A DNA stretch of 64,000 nucleotides, taken from the sequence record NC_054925.1; one strand, given 5' to 3'. Source of the stretch: Escherichia phage vB_EcoM_NBG2. The translations under genes and the position numbers were made by a program. Of this stretch, positions 53,124 to 60,925 are shown piece by piece. The notes under the pieces were generated by a model. The model saw nothing but the letters and a program-made list of their open reading frames with translations, was not told where the DNA came from and ran no database searches. Every line of letters starts with the position of its first letter. Within the stretch, counting starts at the first letter, position 1.

Positions 53124-53154
53124 ATGGGGACCTTTCGGTCCCCATGTTTTTATT
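53124..53154 (+). terminator. intrinsic terminator after gene 54 (9-bp stem AUGGGGACC...GGUCCCCAU plus U-rich tail)
   Basis: Stem followed by gtttttattt. Confidence 0.6.
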
Positions 53155-53440
53155 TACGGAATGAAATAAAAGCAGCAACTGAAGCAACTAAACTGTCTTC
53201 AATATAAACTTCAATTTTTACCGGAGCTTCTGACTCAAATTTGCCTGTTACTACACCTTGGAAAATGCTTTCAGTCTGTTCTGGCTTTGAAAAATTTTCA
53301 GAAGGAAAAATTCCGAACTTTTTATCTGTTCCAAAAATTTTGATAAATTCATCATAAACTGCTTCATTAAAAGCGTTATCAGCAGGAATAACGCCTTCAA
53401 CTACAAGTTCTTGACCTAAAAAGCGCAAAGAAGATTTCAT
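53150..53440 (-). CDS. hypothetical protein, 96 aa, downstream of the alt genes
   Basis: GAGGAA RBS; early-type promoter immediately upstream. Confidence 0.5.
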   Translation of the reverse strand: MKSSLRFLGQELVVEGVIPADNAFNEAVYDEFIKIFGTDKKFGIFPSENFSKPEQTESIFQGVVTGKFESEAPVKIEVYIEDSLVASVAAFISFRK

Positions 53441-53470: not shown

Positions 53471-53500
53471 TACTATAACACAACACGAGGGACTTGTAAA
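53471..53500 (-). promoter_or_regulatory. T4 early-type promoter (GTTTAC-N18-TATAGT) on minus strand
   Basis: Plus strand gtaaac 53495-53500 and actata 53471-53476. Confidence 0.45.
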
Positions 53501-55558
53501 CTACATTTTGAACTTTTTAGACATTCCGTTAATATTAACCAAAGAAGCCAAGATTTGAGAAACTTCGTTTTCCTCTTCTTTTGATTCTTCTACAAGGAAT
53601 TGATTAAATCCAGTCATTGGACGAACTTCACCAGTTTCCATTAGATGGTCGCCATCATATACCGATTCTTCTAATTGTTCAGAAGGAGGAACGATTGTGC
53701 CTTCGATTAGATACTTGTTATAAGCAGTTTCTTTCATCATGTACGTACTCACTTTATTAATCTTCAGCAAAATTCCACGTGGTAAAATAACTTCAGCTTC
53801 TGATGGAAATCCTGATAAATGACCCGGAACGATAACTTTGATTCGCTCAGCTCCTTTAATTACCATACCTACGCTAGTTTCAGCATCTTCATTCGCATAA
53901 GCAGAGTGACTGCCCATATGCATCAAATCTTCTGCGTCAACTGAACCTTCTCCTTCACCAGAAAATACTGCACTGGAATCATCTAGGGCCATATAGTTTT
54001 TACCATACTCACCGAAGATATTTGGTTTAAGCGATGTGGATACGAAGTTCTTGAAATAGAACATTTTATTTTCAATATTATGACGTAAAGTTTTAAAGGT
54101 AACTTCTTGGCCACGGTAAAGCGTAGTTCCTGGAGGAAGAACTGATCCTTTGGCAAAGGCAGAATCCATTGTCTCGATGTGTTTAATAGCTCGTTCCATA
54201 TATTCTTCACGGGTAGAATCCGGTTTACCTAAAAGGAACGAGTTCATTTCAACATATGAATCTGCACAATAATCTTCAATTACATCAGACTCAGCTTGAG
54301 TTAATCCTTTTGGAGTTACTTCAGTACTTGCATATTCATACGCTTGAGAAGCAGACTCATTAATCAATTTATAAACGCCATTCATGACAAATTGAACAAT
54401 AGCTACCTTTTCATCTGGTGTGGCTTTAGAACCTTTAACTAAATCATTGACAATTTTCTTAATAACATCAAAGCTATTAGAAATATTAATGTCAGCAAGA
54501 TCGCTTAAAATTTTATCAGTTTTATAATCAAAAAATTCTTTATTCTTTAAATATTCTTGAGAACCTTGATATGTTATATCGCTCTGTAACTTGATAGATG
54601 GATCACGTAAACGCGCATGAGCCAATGCAATATGATTTCGGAAGCTTTCTAATTCATAATCACTAGATTTAAAACGGGAAGCACTTCTCATACCACCGAT
54701 AGCTCCTTTGCTGAAGTTTGAACCAACCTGAATAACGCCAGAGTTCATTGGTCCTTCTGCTTTATATACCGGAACTTTAGATTCAAACTCTTGATATTTC
54801 TTAGCAGCGAAGCTATCACCCTGAAGTGAAGCATCGACAGTAGAATATTGAGCTTGTGCTGCTAACCGACGACTAATTTTAGTTTTCTGAATAACAGCTT
54901 GATCCGTGCGCTTATCGTTTTCTAAAGCAATAGAAGCAGCAACAGCAACAGCTTTAGGAACAGCATTACCTGTTTTAACATCTATATAAACATCACCAAC
55001 CTTTGATTCAACTTTTGTGAATAACTCAGTTGAAATAGGAGGTACACCTGGAATGTCTTCTAAATTAGCATTTTTACGGTAAACCATAATATATGCGTAC
55101 TTTTTATCGTAATCCCAGATTTCCTTTAAAAGAACATATCGACCTGCTCCTTTAGTACGTACTAAACGGTCGGCAATAACTTGCATTTGACGAGCTGCAC
55201 CATTTGTTTTACTCTTTAGTACGCGGAATAAGCATGCGTCAATTTTGTATTGTTTCATTGTCTGAAGAGCAGTATCAAAAACCGCATTAATGACACCAAT
55301 TGGATTTCCACCCAAGTTTTTAAGTTTAACTAATGATAGTTTTTCATTGACCCCTATCATTACGATATGCATCATTTTATCGCCTGGCTTAACGTTTTTA
55401 TTTGTATCACCGCCAGAGGTGTATGTACAAAATCTAAATCCAGGAAGCACGCTTTCTTCACCGGCTTGAATAGCAAAAATTTGAGGTATTTTATGCTTAG
55501 GATTTAAGTTAACAACCGGCGCCGAAGCGCCGTCAAATAATTCTGTAATAAGTTCCAT
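53501..55558 (-). CDS. Alt-family ADP-ribosyltransferase paralog, 685 aa
   Basis: N-terminal ~270 aa closely similar to the adjacent alt gene; C-terminal R-S-E type motifs (YRGQ, FVSTSL, SEAEVILPRG). Confidence 0.8.
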   Translation of the reverse strand: MELITELFDGASAPVVNLNPKHKIPQIFAIQAGEESVLPGFRFCTYTSGGDTNKNVKPGDKMMHIVMIGVNEKLSLVKLKNLGGNPIGVINAVFDTALQTMKQYKIDACLFRVLKSKTNGAARQMQVIADRLVRTKGAGRYVLLKEIWDYDKKYAYIMVYRKNANLEDIPGVPPISTELFTKVESKVGDVYIDVKTGNAVPKAVAVAASIALENDKRTDQAVIQKTKISRRLAAQAQYSTVDASLQGDSFAAKKYQEFESKVPVYKAEGPMNSGVIQVGSNFSKGAIGGMRSASRFKSSDYELESFRNHIALAHARLRDPSIKLQSDITYQGSQEYLKNKEFFDYKTDKILSDLADINISNSFDVIKKIVNDLVKGSKATPDEKVAIVQFVMNGVYKLINESASQAYEYASTEVTPKGLTQAESDVIEDYCADSYVEMNSFLLGKPDSTREEYMERAIKHIETMDSAFAKGSVLPPGTTLYRGQEVTFKTLRHNIENKMFYFKNFVSTSLKPNIFGEYGKNYMALDDSSAVFSGEGEGSVDAEDLMHMGSHSAYANEDAETSVGMVIKGAERIKVIVPGHLSGFPSEAEVILPRGILLKINKVSTYMMKETAYNKYLIEGTIVPPSEQLEESVYDGDHLMETGEVRPMTGFNQFLVEESKEEENEVSQILASLVNINGMSKKFKM

Positions 55559-55561
55559 GAT

Positions 55562-57658
55562 TTATCCTTGAACGAACTTGTAAGGCATGTTTGTAATATC
55601 TATGCAAGACGCAATAATTCCAAGAGATGATTCTACTTTCTGTTTAACATTTGATGAAACAAATGATGCAAAGTCAACTCTGTCTTCTATTTCAATATCA
55701 TCTGTCATTGCAACTACTTCACCCGTTTCCATTAGACGGTCACCGTCATAAATTACTGATTCGGTGAGTTCTTCCGTAGTCATAACTTCAGCTTGAATGA
55801 GTTTTGTATTATTAGATGTTGTTCCGTCATTATTAGAAGCATCAGTTATTTTATTAACTTTGACCATCAATCCGCGCGGTAGAATAACTTCAGCTTCAGT
55901 TGCTATTCCGAGACTTCCTGGATATACAACATTAACTTTATGAGCTCCATCAATTGCCCATCCTATTTGAACTTTAACGTATTCAGGATTTTCTTTATAC
56001 GCTCTTATTTCGTTTGGATTAATAGTTATTCCTTCTTCATTTTTATCAACTGTTAATTCATTACGAGCTTCTGGTTCTAAAAGACCGATACCAGCATGTG
56101 TAATTCCAAAACGTCCAAAAATGATAGGAGTTAAAGAAGTAGATACAAAATTTCTGAAATAGAACACTTTATTTTTAACTAGCGCTTCGTATATAGGAGC
56201 AGTCATACTTTGAGCACGATAAACTGTAATGCCCTCTGGTATACGGTCACCATTTTCAAAAGCTGAATCTAAATTATTTATCGCAGATTCAATTTCTTTT
56301 TCACTCATTACATCATATCGTTCTGGATTGTAGCGGCCTAAAAGAAGATTATTGATGTCAGTATATCCTGATCCACAATACTCTCTAATGCCGCGCTTTT
56401 GCGATGGAGTATATTTAGAACCATCACGTGCAATGGTAATATCAATCATTGGACCTGCACCAATTCCAGAAAAGCTATAAATCATTCGTTTGAGGAATTT
56501 AGTTTTTGCTGCGTTCCAGGAATTTTTAGTTATTTCTTCCCAGACTTCATCTGGCTGCCCTTTACGAGTTTTATTATGTTTATCAAGCCAATTATCTTTA
56601 TATTCTTCAAATAATTGATTAACAGCTGCTGCGTATTTCTCTAAACATTTTATTGAAGTAGTTGGTTCATTTTTAATCGCATTAAGAATTACATCTTTAA
56701 TTTTTTCAGAAACTTCATTAACCTCACTTTTTGAAAAGAATTTATAGTCATAGTGAAGTTCATCTGCGGTTCCTTCGGCAATAATTTTTGCTGCCTTAGT
56801 TTTAGAAGCTAATGAATTAATTCCAAGCTTCATTTCTTCTGCTTCGGGAATTAAAGGAGCTGTAGCAGGTTTATTGAAATTAGCTGCGGTAGATTCATAT
56901 TTCTGGAATAATTCGCTTTCAAATCTAGAAGATTCTAATGACTGACTTTGTGCAATTGCTCTACGGGAAATTTTAACTTTAACGATAACAGCTTGGTCAG
57001 AGCGTTTATCATTTTCTTGTGCAATAGATGCTGCAATTGCCTCATTTTTAGTTACTTGAGCTCCAGTATCTTTATTGATATAAACATCGCCGACTTTCGA
57101 TTCAACCTTAGTAAAGAGCTCGGTACTAATTTCAGGAACTCCTGGAATGTCTTCTAGTGATACATTTTTGCGATGTATAAGAATATATGCGTACTTTTTA
57201 TCATAATCCCAGAGTTCCTTAAGAAGGACGTATCTGCCACCTGAACGACTACGGATAAGTCTATCAGCAATAACTTGAATTTGTCGAGCTTGACCAGCAG
57301 TTTTAGACTTAAGAATACGAAGCATACAGGCATCAATTTTATACTGACGCATCGTCTGCATTGCAACAGTAAAAACTGAATTGATGTAATTAATTGGGCT
57401 TGGACCGAGACCTTTTAATTTAGCAATTGAACCTTTAGCAGTTAATGTAAAAGGAACAATATGCATCATTTTATCGCCCATTTTTAAATCGCGATTAGTA
57501 TCACCTCCAGATGTATAGGTACATAAACGAAAGCCTGGTTGTTCAATTGCATCATCAACATGAACTGAAAAAATTTGTGGTATTTTCTTCTTTGGATTTA
57601 AGTTTGTAATCGGAAGAGTAGTATCTTCGTCAAATAATTCTGTAATGAGTTCCATCAT
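55562..57658 (-). CDS. alt: ADP-ribosyltransferase Alt, 698 aa
   Basis: R-S-E type motifs (YRAQ, FVSTSL, TEAEVILPRG); size and position next to DNA ligase. Confidence 0.85.
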   Translation of the reverse strand: MMELITELFDEDTTLPITNLNPKKKIPQIFSVHVDDAIEQPGFRLCTYTSGGDTNRDLKMGDKMMHIVPFTLTAKGSIAKLKGLGPSPINYINSVFTVAMQTMRQYKIDACMLRILKSKTAGQARQIQVIADRLIRSRSGGRYVLLKELWDYDKKYAYILIHRKNVSLEDIPGVPEISTELFTKVESKVGDVYINKDTGAQVTKNEAIAASIAQENDKRSDQAVIVKVKISRRAIAQSQSLESSRFESELFQKYESTAANFNKPATAPLIPEAEEMKLGINSLASKTKAAKIIAEGTADELHYDYKFFSKSEVNEVSEKIKDVILNAIKNEPTTSIKCLEKYAAAVNQLFEEYKDNWLDKHNKTRKGQPDEVWEEITKNSWNAAKTKFLKRMIYSFSGIGAGPMIDITIARDGSKYTPSQKRGIREYCGSGYTDINNLLLGRYNPERYDVMSEKEIESAINNLDSAFENGDRIPEGITVYRAQSMTAPIYEALVKNKVFYFRNFVSTSLTPIIFGRFGITHAGIGLLEPEARNELTVDKNEEGITINPNEIRAYKENPEYVKVQIGWAIDGAHKVNVVYPGSLGIATEAEVILPRGLMVKVNKITDASNNDGTTSNNTKLIQAEVMTTEELTESVIYDGDRLMETGEVVAMTDDIEIEDRVDFASFVSSNVKQKVESSLGIIASCIDITNMPYKFVQG

Positions 57659-57678: not shown

Positions 57679-57686
57679 TATTTATA
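57679..57686 (-). promoter_or_regulatory. T4 late promoter TATAAATA on minus strand upstream of alt
   Basis: Plus strand tatttata, 21 nt upstream of the ATG at 57658. Confidence 0.5.
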
Positions 57687-57692
57687 AAATTA

Positions 57693-57708
57693 AAGGCCCG
57701 AAGGCCTT
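57693..57708 (-). terminator. stem-loop AAGGCC-UUCG-GGCCUU on minus transcript
   Basis: Seen directly; followed by U-rich sequence. Confidence 0.45.
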
Positions 57709-57896
57709 TAATAATCTAGTGGTAAGAGAGTACGATATATTTCAAACTTTGGACCTTTTTCGTAGGCATCAAATGTTTCTGTAAATTTATTATAAGCATA
57801 TGCATCTACAAATTCGAGAATGACTTGTGATACCGAAGTAGAAACATCTCCACCTTCTTTTTGAGCAACGACAATTGTTTCTAAGTAAGCTTTCAT
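57708..57896 (-). CDS. hypothetical protein, 62 aa
   Basis: Complete ORF overlapping the ligase stop. Confidence 0.45.
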   Translation of the reverse strand: MKAYLETIVVAQKEGGDVSTSVSQVILEFVDAYAYNKFTETFDAYEKGPKFEIYRTLLPLDY

Positions 57897-59353
57897 AAAC
57901 CAGTTACCTCATGAAAATCACCAAATACATCCTCGAATGTATTAGCTTTAGTTTTATCTTCACGTAAACGAATCGCAATTGGAAGAAATAATTTAACGTA
58001 ATCAGTGCGACCATCAGATTTTAACCAACCATTGCATTCGCACTCTAGAATTTTTCCAATATAATAATTTTGGTTTTCCATAATGCGAGTACGGTCAAGT
58101 TCATGTGATTTTACACCGGCTTTATCTTTTAAGCCTGAACCAGCATTTACTTTAATTTTTCCACACTCTGATTCAAGAATAAATCCACCCGCTTTAGTAG
58201 GGTCTTTACGGTGAGGATAAATTCCTACAATTTTTAAATCAACATCAATTACTTCTTTAAATTTATAGAGATTTTTTGAACGAGCATTTTCCCACAATCC
58301 ATCGGTATTTTTGAGAATAATACCTTCAAGACCTTGGTCAATATATTTTTTATAAATTACCTTAGCTTCATCTAGGTTATTTACTACTTGGTTTTCAATT
58401 AAAATTACTTTATCATATCCTGATGTCATTTGTTCTAGTTTAGAAAAACGTACATCATATTTTAAACGAAACGCCGGAAGACCGTATATTTCTACCAACG
58501 GAACATAATCCCAGACCTGAAACTTCATACATTGGGCTTCTTTTTCTGAAATAGTTCCCTTTAAAGATTTATTAGCGATTCCATTAGAAGCAGTACGAGA
58601 TTCAGCTACTTCTGTGAAGTCTTTAGCTTTGCTAATTTCAGGAGTGTCAAAAAGAAAATCTAGGCCTTCTGGTTCCTTTTTAACTTGCTCATGGTATACC
58701 AATTCGCCATCAATTAACACACCTTCTGGATGAATCTGGCGGGCTTCAGCGGTCATTTTGATTAACTCTTCCTTAAGAAGATCTAATCCTAGATATTCAT
58801 TACCAGCTCGTGATAAAAGACGAACATCATCTAATTCATCTCCTCTGACTTCAGCAAAACACCGGGCTCCATCTGCTTTTAACTGCGCAAAAGCTGGAAA
58901 TTTGATATTCTTACTAATGCCTTTTTCATCATAAGAACTTGCAAGCATTTGAGGTTGTTCAGGAATTAAACCTGGCCAAACTTTGTTTGCAATAGATACT
59001 GAAGCACCGCATTCAAGGTCTCGCATCATAACTCGGCGCAAAACTTCAACATCATCCTTTTTACCATCGGTGATATATCCAGTTAATTCCTCAATTGCTG
59101 CATTTCCAGTCAATTTCCGAGTAGCTAACGTAAATTCAATAAAGTCAAGCATATCGGTAATGGTCAGCATTCCAAAACTCTGGGTAGCAATACCAGGCTT
59201 AGGCCATTTCTTGATATAATACTGTAACCCACGAGAATAAGTCAGACGATATACTCGTTTAAGCAATTCATTATCTTTATTCTTTTCAAGAATTGCTTGC
59301 TTCTGCTTAGTTGATCCAATAGATGCTATTTCATTCAGAATTTTAAGAATCAT
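57893..59353 (-). CDS. 30: ATP-dependent DNA ligase, 486 aa
   Basis: Adenylation motif I KADGARC; size and position match T4 gp30. Confidence 0.9.
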   Translation of the reverse strand: MILKILNEIASIGSTKQKQAILEKNKDNELLKRVYRLTYSRGLQYYIKKWPKPGIATQSFGMLTITDMLDFIEFTLATRKLTGNAAIEELTGYITDGKKDDVEVLRRVMMRDLECGASVSIANKVWPGLIPEQPQMLASSYDEKGISKNIKFPAFAQLKADGARCFAEVRGDELDDVRLLSRAGNEYLGLDLLKEELIKMTAEARQIHPEGVLIDGELVYHEQVKKEPEGLDFLFDTPEISKAKDFTEVAESRTASNGIANKSLKGTISEKEAQCMKFQVWDYVPLVEIYGLPAFRLKYDVRFSKLEQMTSGYDKVILIENQVVNNLDEAKVIYKKYIDQGLEGIILKNTDGLWENARSKNLYKFKEVIDVDLKIVGIYPHRKDPTKAGGFILESECGKIKVNAGSGLKDKAGVKSHELDRTRIMENQNYYIGKILECECNGWLKSDGRTDYVKLFLPIAIRLREDKTKANTFEDVFGDFHEVTGL

Positions 59354-59619: not shown

Positions 59620-60464
59620 TAGAATGCTCCTTGAAAAATATTATCACCACTAGTAGGTCTATTATACAAATACTCTATGCCACCAGGTTTAATATAGTTC
59701 CATGTCTGAAACGGATATGTCTGATATGGATAATATGGATGATATAGATTATAAGGATTAAATCCAGGCGTTCTCCAGGTAGTGTTCCAAGGAAAAGAAT
59801 CGTTTTTAACCATCTTCTCAATTACATCTTTTATAGCTTTTTCACTATCAAAATTTTCTTTATTTTCCTTCGGTGAAAAAAGCTTATTTTCTACATCATT
59901 CCATGTATAAACTCGCTGAGCAGTTTTTGGAATATTGTCACGTTCTCCTCGAGCCATCCAATAAACCGGAACATTTAATATTTCACTCGCGTGGTCGCAG
60001 TGGTGAGCGAGATCGTCAATATAACAAATTACGTTATATTTCTCTTTTGCCTTTTTAAACAACTCTTCTTTTGAAGAATCATGACCACACATCATTACTT
60101 CTGAGAAGGCACCAGGAAAAAGAGCATTCAAATTAAATTGACGATTTAATAGAGCATCAATAGAATCACCCAATGCTGTAACAGCTACAAAATTATAATC
60201 TTCTTTTAATTTGTTAATTACACACAGGGCATCTTTATACGGAGACAAGTAACGAATAAAATCTGAACGATTGTATTTTTCAATTAACTTGACGCCAAGT
60301 TCTTCGTCACAATTAAAGAGTTTACCTGGAGAAATAAATTTCTCATCTTGGATCATTTTTAAAATATGTTCTAATGGAAGATTATATTTCTGAGCAAAAT
60401 AAGGAAGGCCTGATTGCCAGCTTAAACATACTCCATCAATATCAGTCAAAATAGTTGGCTTCAT
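59619..60464 (-). CDS. HAD-superfamily hydrolase-like protein, 281 aa
   Basis: N-terminal DIDGV motif I; later S/T and K...DD motifs. Confidence 0.55.
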   Translation of the reverse strand: MKPTILTDIDGVCLSWQSGLPYFAQKYNLPLEHILKMIQDEKFISPGKLFNCDEELGVKLIEKYNRSDFIRYLSPYKDALCVINKLKEDYNFVAVTALGDSIDALLNRQFNLNALFPGAFSEVMMCGHDSSKEELFKKAKEKYNVICYIDDLAHHCDHASEILNVPVYWMARGERDNIPKTAQRVYTWNDVENKLFSPKENKENFDSEKAIKDVIEKMVKNDSFPWNTTWRTPGFNPYNLYHPYYPYQTYPFQTWNYIKPGGIEYLYNRPTSGDNIFQGAF

Positions 60465-60925
60465 AGAGAGTCTCTTAATAGGTTTAACACATCAATAAAT
60501 TCAGCTTCGGTTAGTATTGTATCATCTTTTGTTAGACCACTAGCCATGCTGTGCTTCAAAACTTTTCCTTTCGAGGCTTGTAATGCATCACGAAAGCCCC
60601 TGTTTTGGATCGCTGCTTCAAAATATGCATTTGTGTATAATTCTTTCCATGCTTCGGAATATCTTGAAAACGGAGTTCCAAGCCAGAACAACGTGCCACG
60701 GTCCTGAGCTCTTGCATAAGCTCGTCCAGCTTTTTGCGCATCCAACCCGGACATCCCAAATATGCGTCTTTGCTGTTCAACATTTTTCACCTTACACCCT
60801 TGGAGGAATCCTTCGAGACCTCCAAATTGGATACCATCCATAACGAAAGGCCATTGGGCGAAATTGCTTAATGCACATGATGGCCATCTAAAATTGCTTC
60901 TTATCTCTAGCTCAGACATTTTCAA
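60461..60925 (-). CDS. NADAR / YbiA-like (DUF1768) protein, 154 aa
   Basis: Core LSNFAQWP...DG...EGFLQGCK matches the YbiA FSNFxxWP...DG...EHYFQAQK pattern as I recall it. Confidence 0.55.
   Translation of the reverse strand: MKMSELEIRSNFRWPSCALSNFAQWPFVMDGIQFGGLEGFLQGCKVKNVEQQRRIFGMSGLDAQKAGRAYARAQDRGTLFWLGTPFSRYSEAWKELYTNAYFEAAIQNRGFRDALQASKGKVLKHSMASGLTKDDTILTEAEFIDVLNLLRDSL

Follow-up and report, generated by a model that had tools for sequence, protein, structure and literature searches.

Two tandem Alt-family genes in a Tequatrovirus: the second is an intact, conserved paralogue and a probable second injected ADP-ribosyltransferase

In a 64,000-nucleotide stretch of the genome of Escherichia phage vB_EcoM_NBG2 (sequence record NC_054925.1; hereafter the window, with positions counted from its first letter), two adjacent genes on the minus strand encode full-length proteins of the Alt family of ADP-ribosyltransferases (ARTs). 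We denote the upstream gene, which is alt, A1, and the downstream gene, the second Alt paralogue, A2. A2 is almost certainly an intact, selected second gene of the Alt family and the full-length form of the T4 gene fragments alt.-1 and alt.-2. The explanation that best accounts for the evidence overall, and one that we consider likely, is that A2 encodes a second arginine ADP-ribosyltransferase that is packaged and injected and has targets other than those of Alt. Alt is the textbook case of a phage enzyme injected with the DNA; the activity of T4 Alt is the mono-ADP-ribosylation, dependent on nicotinamide adenine dinucleotide (NAD), of Arg265 of RNA polymerase alpha and other targets. The two genes and the parts of A2 are the following.

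55562..57655, minus strand: A1 (alt), Alt ADP-ribosyltransferase, 697 amino acids from the second ATG; PF03496, E = 1.6e-37
53501..55558, minus strand: A2, full-length second Alt paralogue, 685 amino acids, in all likelihood the intact form of T4 alt.-1 plus alt.-2; PF03496, E = 2.1e-20
55541..55558, minus strand: A2 residues 1-6 (MELITE), predicted N-terminal propeptide (motif conservation)
54839..55540, minus strand: A2 residues 7-240, Alt-family N-domain, PF26846 Tevenvirinae_ADPRT; 68% identity to alt
54314..54838, minus strand: A2 residues 241-415, helical domain, the most diverged part; 19% identity to alt
53666..54313, minus strand: A2 residues 416-631, ART catalytic domain of the R-S-E type, ending in L629-E-E631 (PF03496, model, Foldseek)
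53504..53665, minus strand: A2 residues 632-685, predicted C-terminal propeptide (disordered in the model, with pLDDT below 40; invariant positions)

The two proteins are homologous from end to end (BLASTP: 297 of 718 positions identical, E = 1e-162), and this similarity, along with the fact that hundreds of genomes carry both genes, rules out a chance or artefactual pairing. Identity between A1 and A2 amounts to 68% in the N-terminal module (residues 1-240), 19% in the helical domain (241-420), 37% in the catalytic domain (421-630) and 42% in the C-terminal tail (631 to the end); followed along the length, it is 12-20% from residue ~240 to ~440 and 32-45% in the catalytic domain and the tail. 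The first-pass annotation of this DNA, which had correctly placed two adjacent minus-strand open reading frames (ORFs) at 53501-55558 (685 amino acids) and 55562-57658 (698 amino acids), had described their N-terminal ~270 residues as near-identical: the shared module is real, but it spans ~240 residues and is 68-69% identical. Its companion claim, that the C-terminal halves differ while both keep the R-S-E residues, is borne out by the presence of R, S-T-S and E-A-E in A1 as well as in A2. At the DNA level, the N-terminal 690 nucleotides of the two genes are 68.6% identical, with a longest exact common run of 21 nucleotides; at this level of identity, recent gene conversion between the two N-terminal modules of this genome is not seen. 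The A1 frame opens with ATGATG (57653-57658), and the mechanical ORF call, starting at the first ATG (57656-57658), yields the 698-residue version; the second ATG (57655), annotated as the start of alt in T4, T2 and PP01, gives 697 residues beginning MELITE and thus places the I-T-E cleavage site at residue 6, in agreement with the published one.

Both proteins match the Pfam family PF03496 (ADPrib_exo_Tox). The catalytic positions are Y-R at residues 481-482 of A2 and 479-480 of A1, S-T-S at 507-509 and 505-507, respectively, and E-A-E at 587-589 in both. In an alignment of 23 sequences that represent at least six sequence types of the Alt family, R482, S507, S509, E587 and E589 (A2 numbering) are invariant, so that the assignment of both genes to this family, with catalytic residues intact, stands as first proposed. 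Judging by these motifs, both A1 and A2 look catalytically competent and, because of the Glu-x-Glu motif, the predicted ADP-ribosyltransferase would be arginine-directed. In T4 Alt, the corresponding E-M-E motif is E574-M-E576 in the RefSeq gene translation (L001:5455-7503), and the inactivating mutation is named E577A in a 2024 paper (PMC11404850), an offset of one residue from E576.

The AlphaFold model of full-length A2 (mean predicted local distance difference test score, pLDDT, 75; predicted template modelling score, pTM, 0.65) comprises an alpha/beta N-domain (residues 15-238), an all-helical part (250-470), a mixed ART part (480-625) and a disordered tail; pLDDT falls below 50 in this tail (630-685) and also in residues 1-11, which are likewise disordered. 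When the ART part was compared with the PDB using Foldseek, R-S-E toxins alone were retrieved (Vis, Certhrax, C3, CDTa, iota and VIP2; E from 4e-8 to 1e-5). No solved Alt structure was found by sequence, and the fold search of the PDB gave generic ART toxins alone. Each of the two proteins would consist of a 6-residue N-terminal propeptide, a ~235-residue N-domain found in Alt proteins alone, a variable helical domain, which in A2 is presumed to have a role in target recognition, an ART domain of the R-S-E (C3/VIP2-like) type and, at the C-terminus, a propeptide of ~55-65 residues.

A megablast search with 5 kb of the locus matched 543 phage records, almost all of them from Tequatrovirus, the genus of T2/T4-like phages from which the window comes, with a top match of 98.3%; in 385 of the 543, at least 80% of the query fell within one aligned place. 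Curated and RefSeq records, among them many Tequatrovirus genomes that are 98% identical in DNA to this locus, name both ORFs 'Alt-like RNA polymerase ADP-ribosyltransferase', and phage T2 carries the same pair (697 and 685 amino acids). In 400 phage records, T2 included, the C-terminal 446 residues of A2 recur with at least 95% identity, and almost no records fall between 60 and 95%; in T2, PP01 and about 400 Tequatrovirus records A2 is the same gene, 97-99% identical in amino acid sequence and in the same position with the same partner. The pair is therefore the common state of the genus, not an exception. A2 of the window differs from that of phage PP01 by 48 synonymous and 5 non-synonymous changes, with a ratio of non-synonymous to synonymous substitution rates (dN/dS) of 0.027 and similar values for each domain. 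A2 is a conserved gene under strong purifying selection and, being intact as well, a working one; together, the dN/dS value and the intact catalytic residues rule out a pseudogene.

That a second full-length copy would be new, as the first-pass annotation implied, is not the case: the two-alt arrangement is known and ordinary, annotated in hundreds of genomes and discussed in print. Among the paralogous duplications of alt catalogued by Nolan et al. (2006) are T4 alt.-1/alt.-2 and ORFs of phages RB49 and 44RR, with a full-length one in 44RR (PMC1524935), and a 2026 paper described a pair of Alt-like paralogues with 43.29% identity in a Tequatrovirus (6phi13 / SHFML-11) and proposed a divergent or expanded target range (PMC13600099); that pair differs in nothing material from A1 and A2. 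A functional study of the second Alt copy was not found in the literature.

The relation of this locus to that of T4 differs between the two genes. Compared with T4 Alt, A1 is essentially identical over residues 1-246, 15-35% identical over residues 247-400, about 60% identical in the ART domain and about 90% identical in the last ~100 residues (the C-terminal tail), and the two genes show no detectable DNA similarity between codons ~270 and ~412. In 315 records the variable region of the A1 type is conserved at 95% identity or more; alleles of the T4 type stand apart as a class of their own, at about 45%. By sequence, then, A1 is alt, but an allele other than that of T4. The possibility that T4 Alt is a recombinant of A1 and A2 was discarded, its catalytic half being just 56% and 34% identical to theirs. 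Over the whole length, A2 and T4 Alt share 46% identity, and in the catalytic half 34%.

Full-length A2 has its counterpart in T4 as a remnant. The protein of T4 alt.-1 is nearly identical to A2 residues 1-54 and that of alt.-2 to residues 62-116, and the PHROG families of the two fragments match residues 1-56 and 62-117; they thus correspond to the first ~116 codons of the gene that is complete here. In the DNA alignment, T4 lacks window positions 53521-55210, a deletion of 1.69 kb, the edges of which carry CTTTTTAG and CTCTTTAG, with CT(T/C)TTTAG at both. This pattern identifies the T4 loss as a deletion between short microhomologies. In the T4 remnant a stop codon splits the gene, and the deletion takes it from codon ~117 to the last ~6 codons, whereas A2 is intact. 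A 401-nucleotide probe for the T4 junction was covered over at least 80% of its length in 91 of 498 matching records and matched as two separate halves in the others. The T4 record describes alt.-1/alt.-2 as 'an old duplication of the first part of gene alt'; as read from these alignments, they are what is left of a full-length paralogue still present in most relatives, which refines that note. The first-pass annotation was right that T4 lacks a second full-length copy; what T4 carries is the remnant, alt.-1 and alt.-2. The same annotation had allowed that the paralogue could turn out to be the ordinary gene of the T4 alt neighbourhood, devoid of catalytic residues; it is indeed the gene of the alt.-1/alt.-2 locus, but a full-length one with all of these residues present.

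The expression signals of the locus are the following.

57679..57686, minus strand: T4-type late promoter box TATAAATA, 21 nucleotides upstream of the alt start codon
57692..57709, minus strand: hairpin AAAGGCC-TTCG-GGCCTTT (read from the sequence), which overlaps the stop codon of alt.1 and sits just upstream of the late promoter
55559..55569, minus strand: A1/A2 junction, with the Shine-Dalgarno sequence AAGGA at 55565-55569, the alt stop codon TAA at 55562-55564 and a 3-nucleotide spacer before the A2 ATG
53124..53145, no single strand: bidirectional terminator-like hairpin between gene 54 and alt.-3, where the minus-strand alt unit ends

No second box of this kind occurs on the minus strand of the locus, so that the one at 57679-57686 probably drives both alt genes. 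Between A1 and A2 there is neither a promoter box nor a terminator, A2 has no early or middle promoter of its own, and on the minus strand no terminator-like site precedes the hairpin at 53124-53145, past alt.-3. The two genes probably form one late transcription unit read from a single promoter.

For T4 Alt, mass spectrometry has shown that 6 N-terminal residues are removed at I-T-E-6 and 63 C-terminal residues at L-T-E-619, leaving a mature protein of 68.2 kDa (PMC5694885; summarised in PMC9026906), of which there are about 40 copies per head (PMC9026906); in our own translation, residues 617-619 of T4 Alt are L-T-E. Both proteins of the window retain the corresponding motifs, MELITE in each case and, towards the C-terminus, E-L-T-E preceding S-V-I-Y-D-G-D in A1 and Q-L-E-E preceding S-V-Y-D-G-D in A2. 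Across the Alt-family alignment, the putative sites of cleavage by the gp21 protease, Glu6 and Glu631, are invariant, and in the tail Y634, D635, G636, D637, E641, G643, E644, F651, F654, K682 and F683 are invariant across all Alt types. The cleavage motifs and the tail lend support, although not proof, to packaging and processing of A2, and we regard it as likely that A2 is packaged and injected. That the shared N-terminus as such is the packaging or processing module, as had been proposed, does not follow from these data: the motifs linked to processing lie at both ends of the protein and, since just 6 N-terminal residues are removed from T4 Alt (PMC5694885), residues 7-240 remain in the mature, injected protein.

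The scenario that we favour for both proteins follows that of T4 Alt. A1 and A2 would be incorporated into the core of the prohead, cut at either end by gp21, retained in the head and injected with the DNA, to mono-ADP-ribosylate host proteins before any phage gene is expressed. Because its recognition and catalytic half differs from that of alt, A2 would modify a different or complementary set of host proteins, in the service of host takeover or of disarming a defence system. The divergence between A1 and A2 clusters in the helical domain and in the ~77 residues from S-T-S to E-x-E, where identity is about 20%. In C3-like enzymes, the segment between S-T-S and E-x-E contains the NAD- and substrate-binding loops (PN and ARTT motifs), and the ARTT motif belongs to the specificity-determining regions of other ADP-ribosyltransferases. 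At position -5 from the catalytic Glu, A2 has Phe (F584), A1 has Ile and T4 Alt has Pro; in the family alignment, an aromatic residue at this position is limited to A2-type proteins, the JS10, KM16 and P0017 types having either Y or F. This aromatic, which we take to occupy the position of the ARTT aromatic of the C3 and iota toxins, gives a concrete, if tentative, reason to expect different substrates. That Alt alleles differ functionally in vivo has been shown with the Mokosh type I defence system: T4 Alt, which is required to evade it, rescues growth, and the Alt of phage Bas37 cannot take its place (preprint 10.1101/2025.11.20.689424). As regards the specific proposition that the targets of A2 differ from those of alt, we judge the chances to be about even.

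Several considerations weigh against this scenario. Virion proteomics for any phage with two copies was not found in the searchable literature, and the presence of A2 in virions, its cleavage, injection and activity are what we infer from its motifs and from T4 Alt. The argument for different targets draws on divergence in regions that set specificity in other ADP-ribosyltransferases. Furthermore, neither copy is indispensable: T4-type phages lack A2, and ECML-134, SCS4 and PST carry a hybrid gene alone; A1 and A2 may therefore overlap in function.

These hybrids belong to a broader pattern of rearrangement at the locus. Three database proteins (P0004, P0006 and P0007) begin as the A1 type and continue as the A2 type, with the crossovers located near residues ~105, ~195 and ~225. 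On a 65-kb contig, the hybrid (L003:5001-7055) is the sole alt gene between alt.1 and alt.-3, and in the finished genomes of ECML-134 (L007:1702-3762), SCS4 and Yersinia phage PST a single hybrid alt gene likewise provides the A2-type catalytic domain alone. The three contigs with hybrids are short-read Logan assemblies, but A1 and A2 have no exact common run longer than 21 nucleotides and the same single-gene layout occurs in the three finished genomes, so assembly artefacts were rejected as the source of the hybrids. At the other extreme, Shigella phage PSD9 (Dhakavirus) has three tandem alt genes of 631, 693 and 707 amino acids at the same locus (L008:244-6356), which brings the alt copy number to between 1 and 3 across Tevenvirinae. 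PSD9 ORF7 matches A1 (78% over residues 245 to the end) and ORF6 matches A2 (55%), in the same gene order.

N-domains (A2, 54839-55540; A1, 56936-57637; and the three copies in PSD9, L008) are 63-68% identical within a genome vs 44-48% between proteins of the same warhead type in different genera, which suggests either gene conversion among the tandem copies or co-evolution with the head core of each phage. The ART domain of A1 (codons 421-630, window 55766-56395) and that of PSD9 ORF7 (L008:3407-4036) are 95% identical in protein and 89.8% in DNA sequence, with a synonymous distance (dS) of 0.50, whereas for the rest of the A1 gene and for genes 48 and 54 dS against PSD9 is saturated (1.9 or more). 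Because of this difference, the data point to a relatively recent exchange, between genera, of just the catalytic cassette. The alt locus behaves as an accessory arms-race locus, in which copies are gained, lost, fused and swapped among related phages.

PF26846 (Tevenvirinae_ADPRT) was assigned to the N-domain by precomputed annotation of a 98%-identical cluster representative and of all full-length relatives; the N-domain of A2 is 68% identical to that of T4 Alt. A phmmer search of 1.84 billion representative sequences found the N-domain in 69, almost all of them 600-712 amino acids long, and seven of the nine N-domain proteins scanned with Pfam had a C-terminal ART match, one of these marginal. 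A role of the N-domain as a general chassis for effectors other than ARTs is thus unsupported, given the Alt-like length of almost all 69 proteins and the ART matches in seven of nine. Two short outliers, P0183 (485 amino acids) and P0184 (541 amino acids), are 24-27% identical to the Alt N-domain over ~135 residues; in the Pfam scan neither an ART nor another domain was recognised in them, and they could be diverged ARTs or carry the same N-domain on a different effector. By sequence, the N-domain could not be linked to any known family even at an E-value of 10. In the model of A2 it appears as a compact alpha/beta fold, with weak structural matches to GNAT acyltransferases. The loop between the strand 108-114 and the helix 122-136 reads K-T-N-G-A-A in A2, K-T-A-G-Q-A in A1 and T4 and K-M-K-G-K-G in the JS10 type, with K117 and G120 invariant in the 23-sequence alignment; presumably, it resembles the GNAT beta4-alpha3 pyrophosphate-binding loop, Q/R-x-x-G-x-G/A, which lies in the same topological place. 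The modelled resemblance to GNAT is a lead, not a finding.

These observations allow a bolder, tentative reading, which we consider unlikely: the alt locus as a whole would be a cassette-shuffling array, in which an N-terminal chassis specific to each genome, possibly a GNAT-like second enzyme and more than a tag for packaging, is kept similar by gene conversion or by head-core co-evolution, and ART warheads, each of which would disarm a different defence, are swapped between genera. The A2 warhead would then counter a system other than those linked to T4 Alt (Mokosh type I, MazF). What keeps such a reading open is the combination of the N-domain identities, the dS of 0.50 for the ART domain against PSD9, the varied crossovers of the hybrids and the failure of Alt alleles to substitute for each other against Mokosh.

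Also unlikely is a redundant duplicate, with A2 acting on the targets of Alt (RNA polymerase alpha and others) and adding dose or robustness. A1 and A2 are alike in architecture, processing motifs and arginine-type Glu-x-Glu site, and phages with one catalytic type alone are viable isolates, as redundancy would have it. The catalytic halves, however, are only 30-37% identical, and yet within each type identity stays at 95% or above in hundreds of genomes, with purifying selection strong; moreover, both types are recognisable, in the same order, in Dhakavirus PSD9, which fits two maintained functions better than a drifting spare. We rate as quite improbable that A2 is made late and, unpackaged, acts in the infected cell without injection, as ModA and ModB do. 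Proteomic evidence of its packaging was not found in the searchable literature, and with about 40 Alt copies in a T4 head (PMC9026906) space or assembly sites could be limiting; on the other side, the I-T-E and L-x-E motifs and the conserved tail make sense only inside a prohead with gp21, and an early or middle promoter of its own is missing. A catalytically dead or decaying A2, be it a head-core filler or a pseudogene heading to the state seen in T4, is hardly credible: although T4 and 90 other records have lost the gene, 400 retain it, with the 685-codon frame intact, all catalytic residues in place and equally low dN/dS in every domain tested.

Compared with known systems, then, A1 and A2 share with T4 Alt the locus, the five-part architecture, the cleavage motifs and the R, S-T-S and E-x-E residues, whereas A1 has diverged from it over residues 247-400, and A2 in the catalytic half and in having Phe instead of Pro at -5. 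They also occupy the genomic position of the Alt family, flanked by gene 54/alt.-3 and alt.1/gene 30, on the other strand from the baseplate genes and behind a late promoter. With the bacterial C3, VIP2, iota, CDTa and Vis toxins the Alt proteins have in common the catalytic fold and the active-site motifs, but identity is 14-20%, and the toxins are secreted, unlike Alt, which is injected from the phage head; the Alt proteins additionally possess the ~77-residue stretch from S-T-S to E-x-E, phage-specific N-terminal domains and propeptides. ModA and ModB, R-S-E ADP-ribosyltransferases of the same phage group, belong to the same clade as Alt (PMC5512222) but are small, expressed early and unpackaged, and have neither the N-domain nor the propeptides.

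In the direction of transcription, the minus-strand order is gene 30, alt.1, alt, the second alt and alt.-3, with gene 54 beyond; nearby on the plus strand are genes 29, 48 and 54, for tape measure and baseplate/tail-tube proteins. The minus-strand neighbours are the following.

57893-59353, minus strand: gene 30, DNA ligase
57708-57896, minus strand: alt.1
53150..53440, minus strand: alt.-3, DUF5498, 96 amino acids, downstream neighbour with its own early-type promoter

The alt.-3 promoter lies at 53472-53500 (GTTTAC, 17 nucleotides, TATAGT). In T4, mutations that extend alt.-3 at the C-terminus permit escape from the CmdTAC defence (PMC11618068). Window positions 60461-60925 (minus strand) correspond to T4 gene 30.3 by orthology; this gene is named adfN in a 2025 preprint, where its product is described as an enzyme reversing DarT ADP-ribosylation of DNA (anti-DarTG1). 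With alt, alt.-3 and the gene 30.3 orthologue, this stretch contains several genes tied to ADP-ribosylation conflicts.

A2 is a known gene worth an experiment, not a new kind of system. Nearly all work on Alt has used T4, which at the alt locus is a deletion derivative, and most relatives of T4, including T2, probably inject two different ADP-ribosyltransferases; the strongly conserved A2 warhead is a reasonable candidate for an anti-defence or takeover factor.

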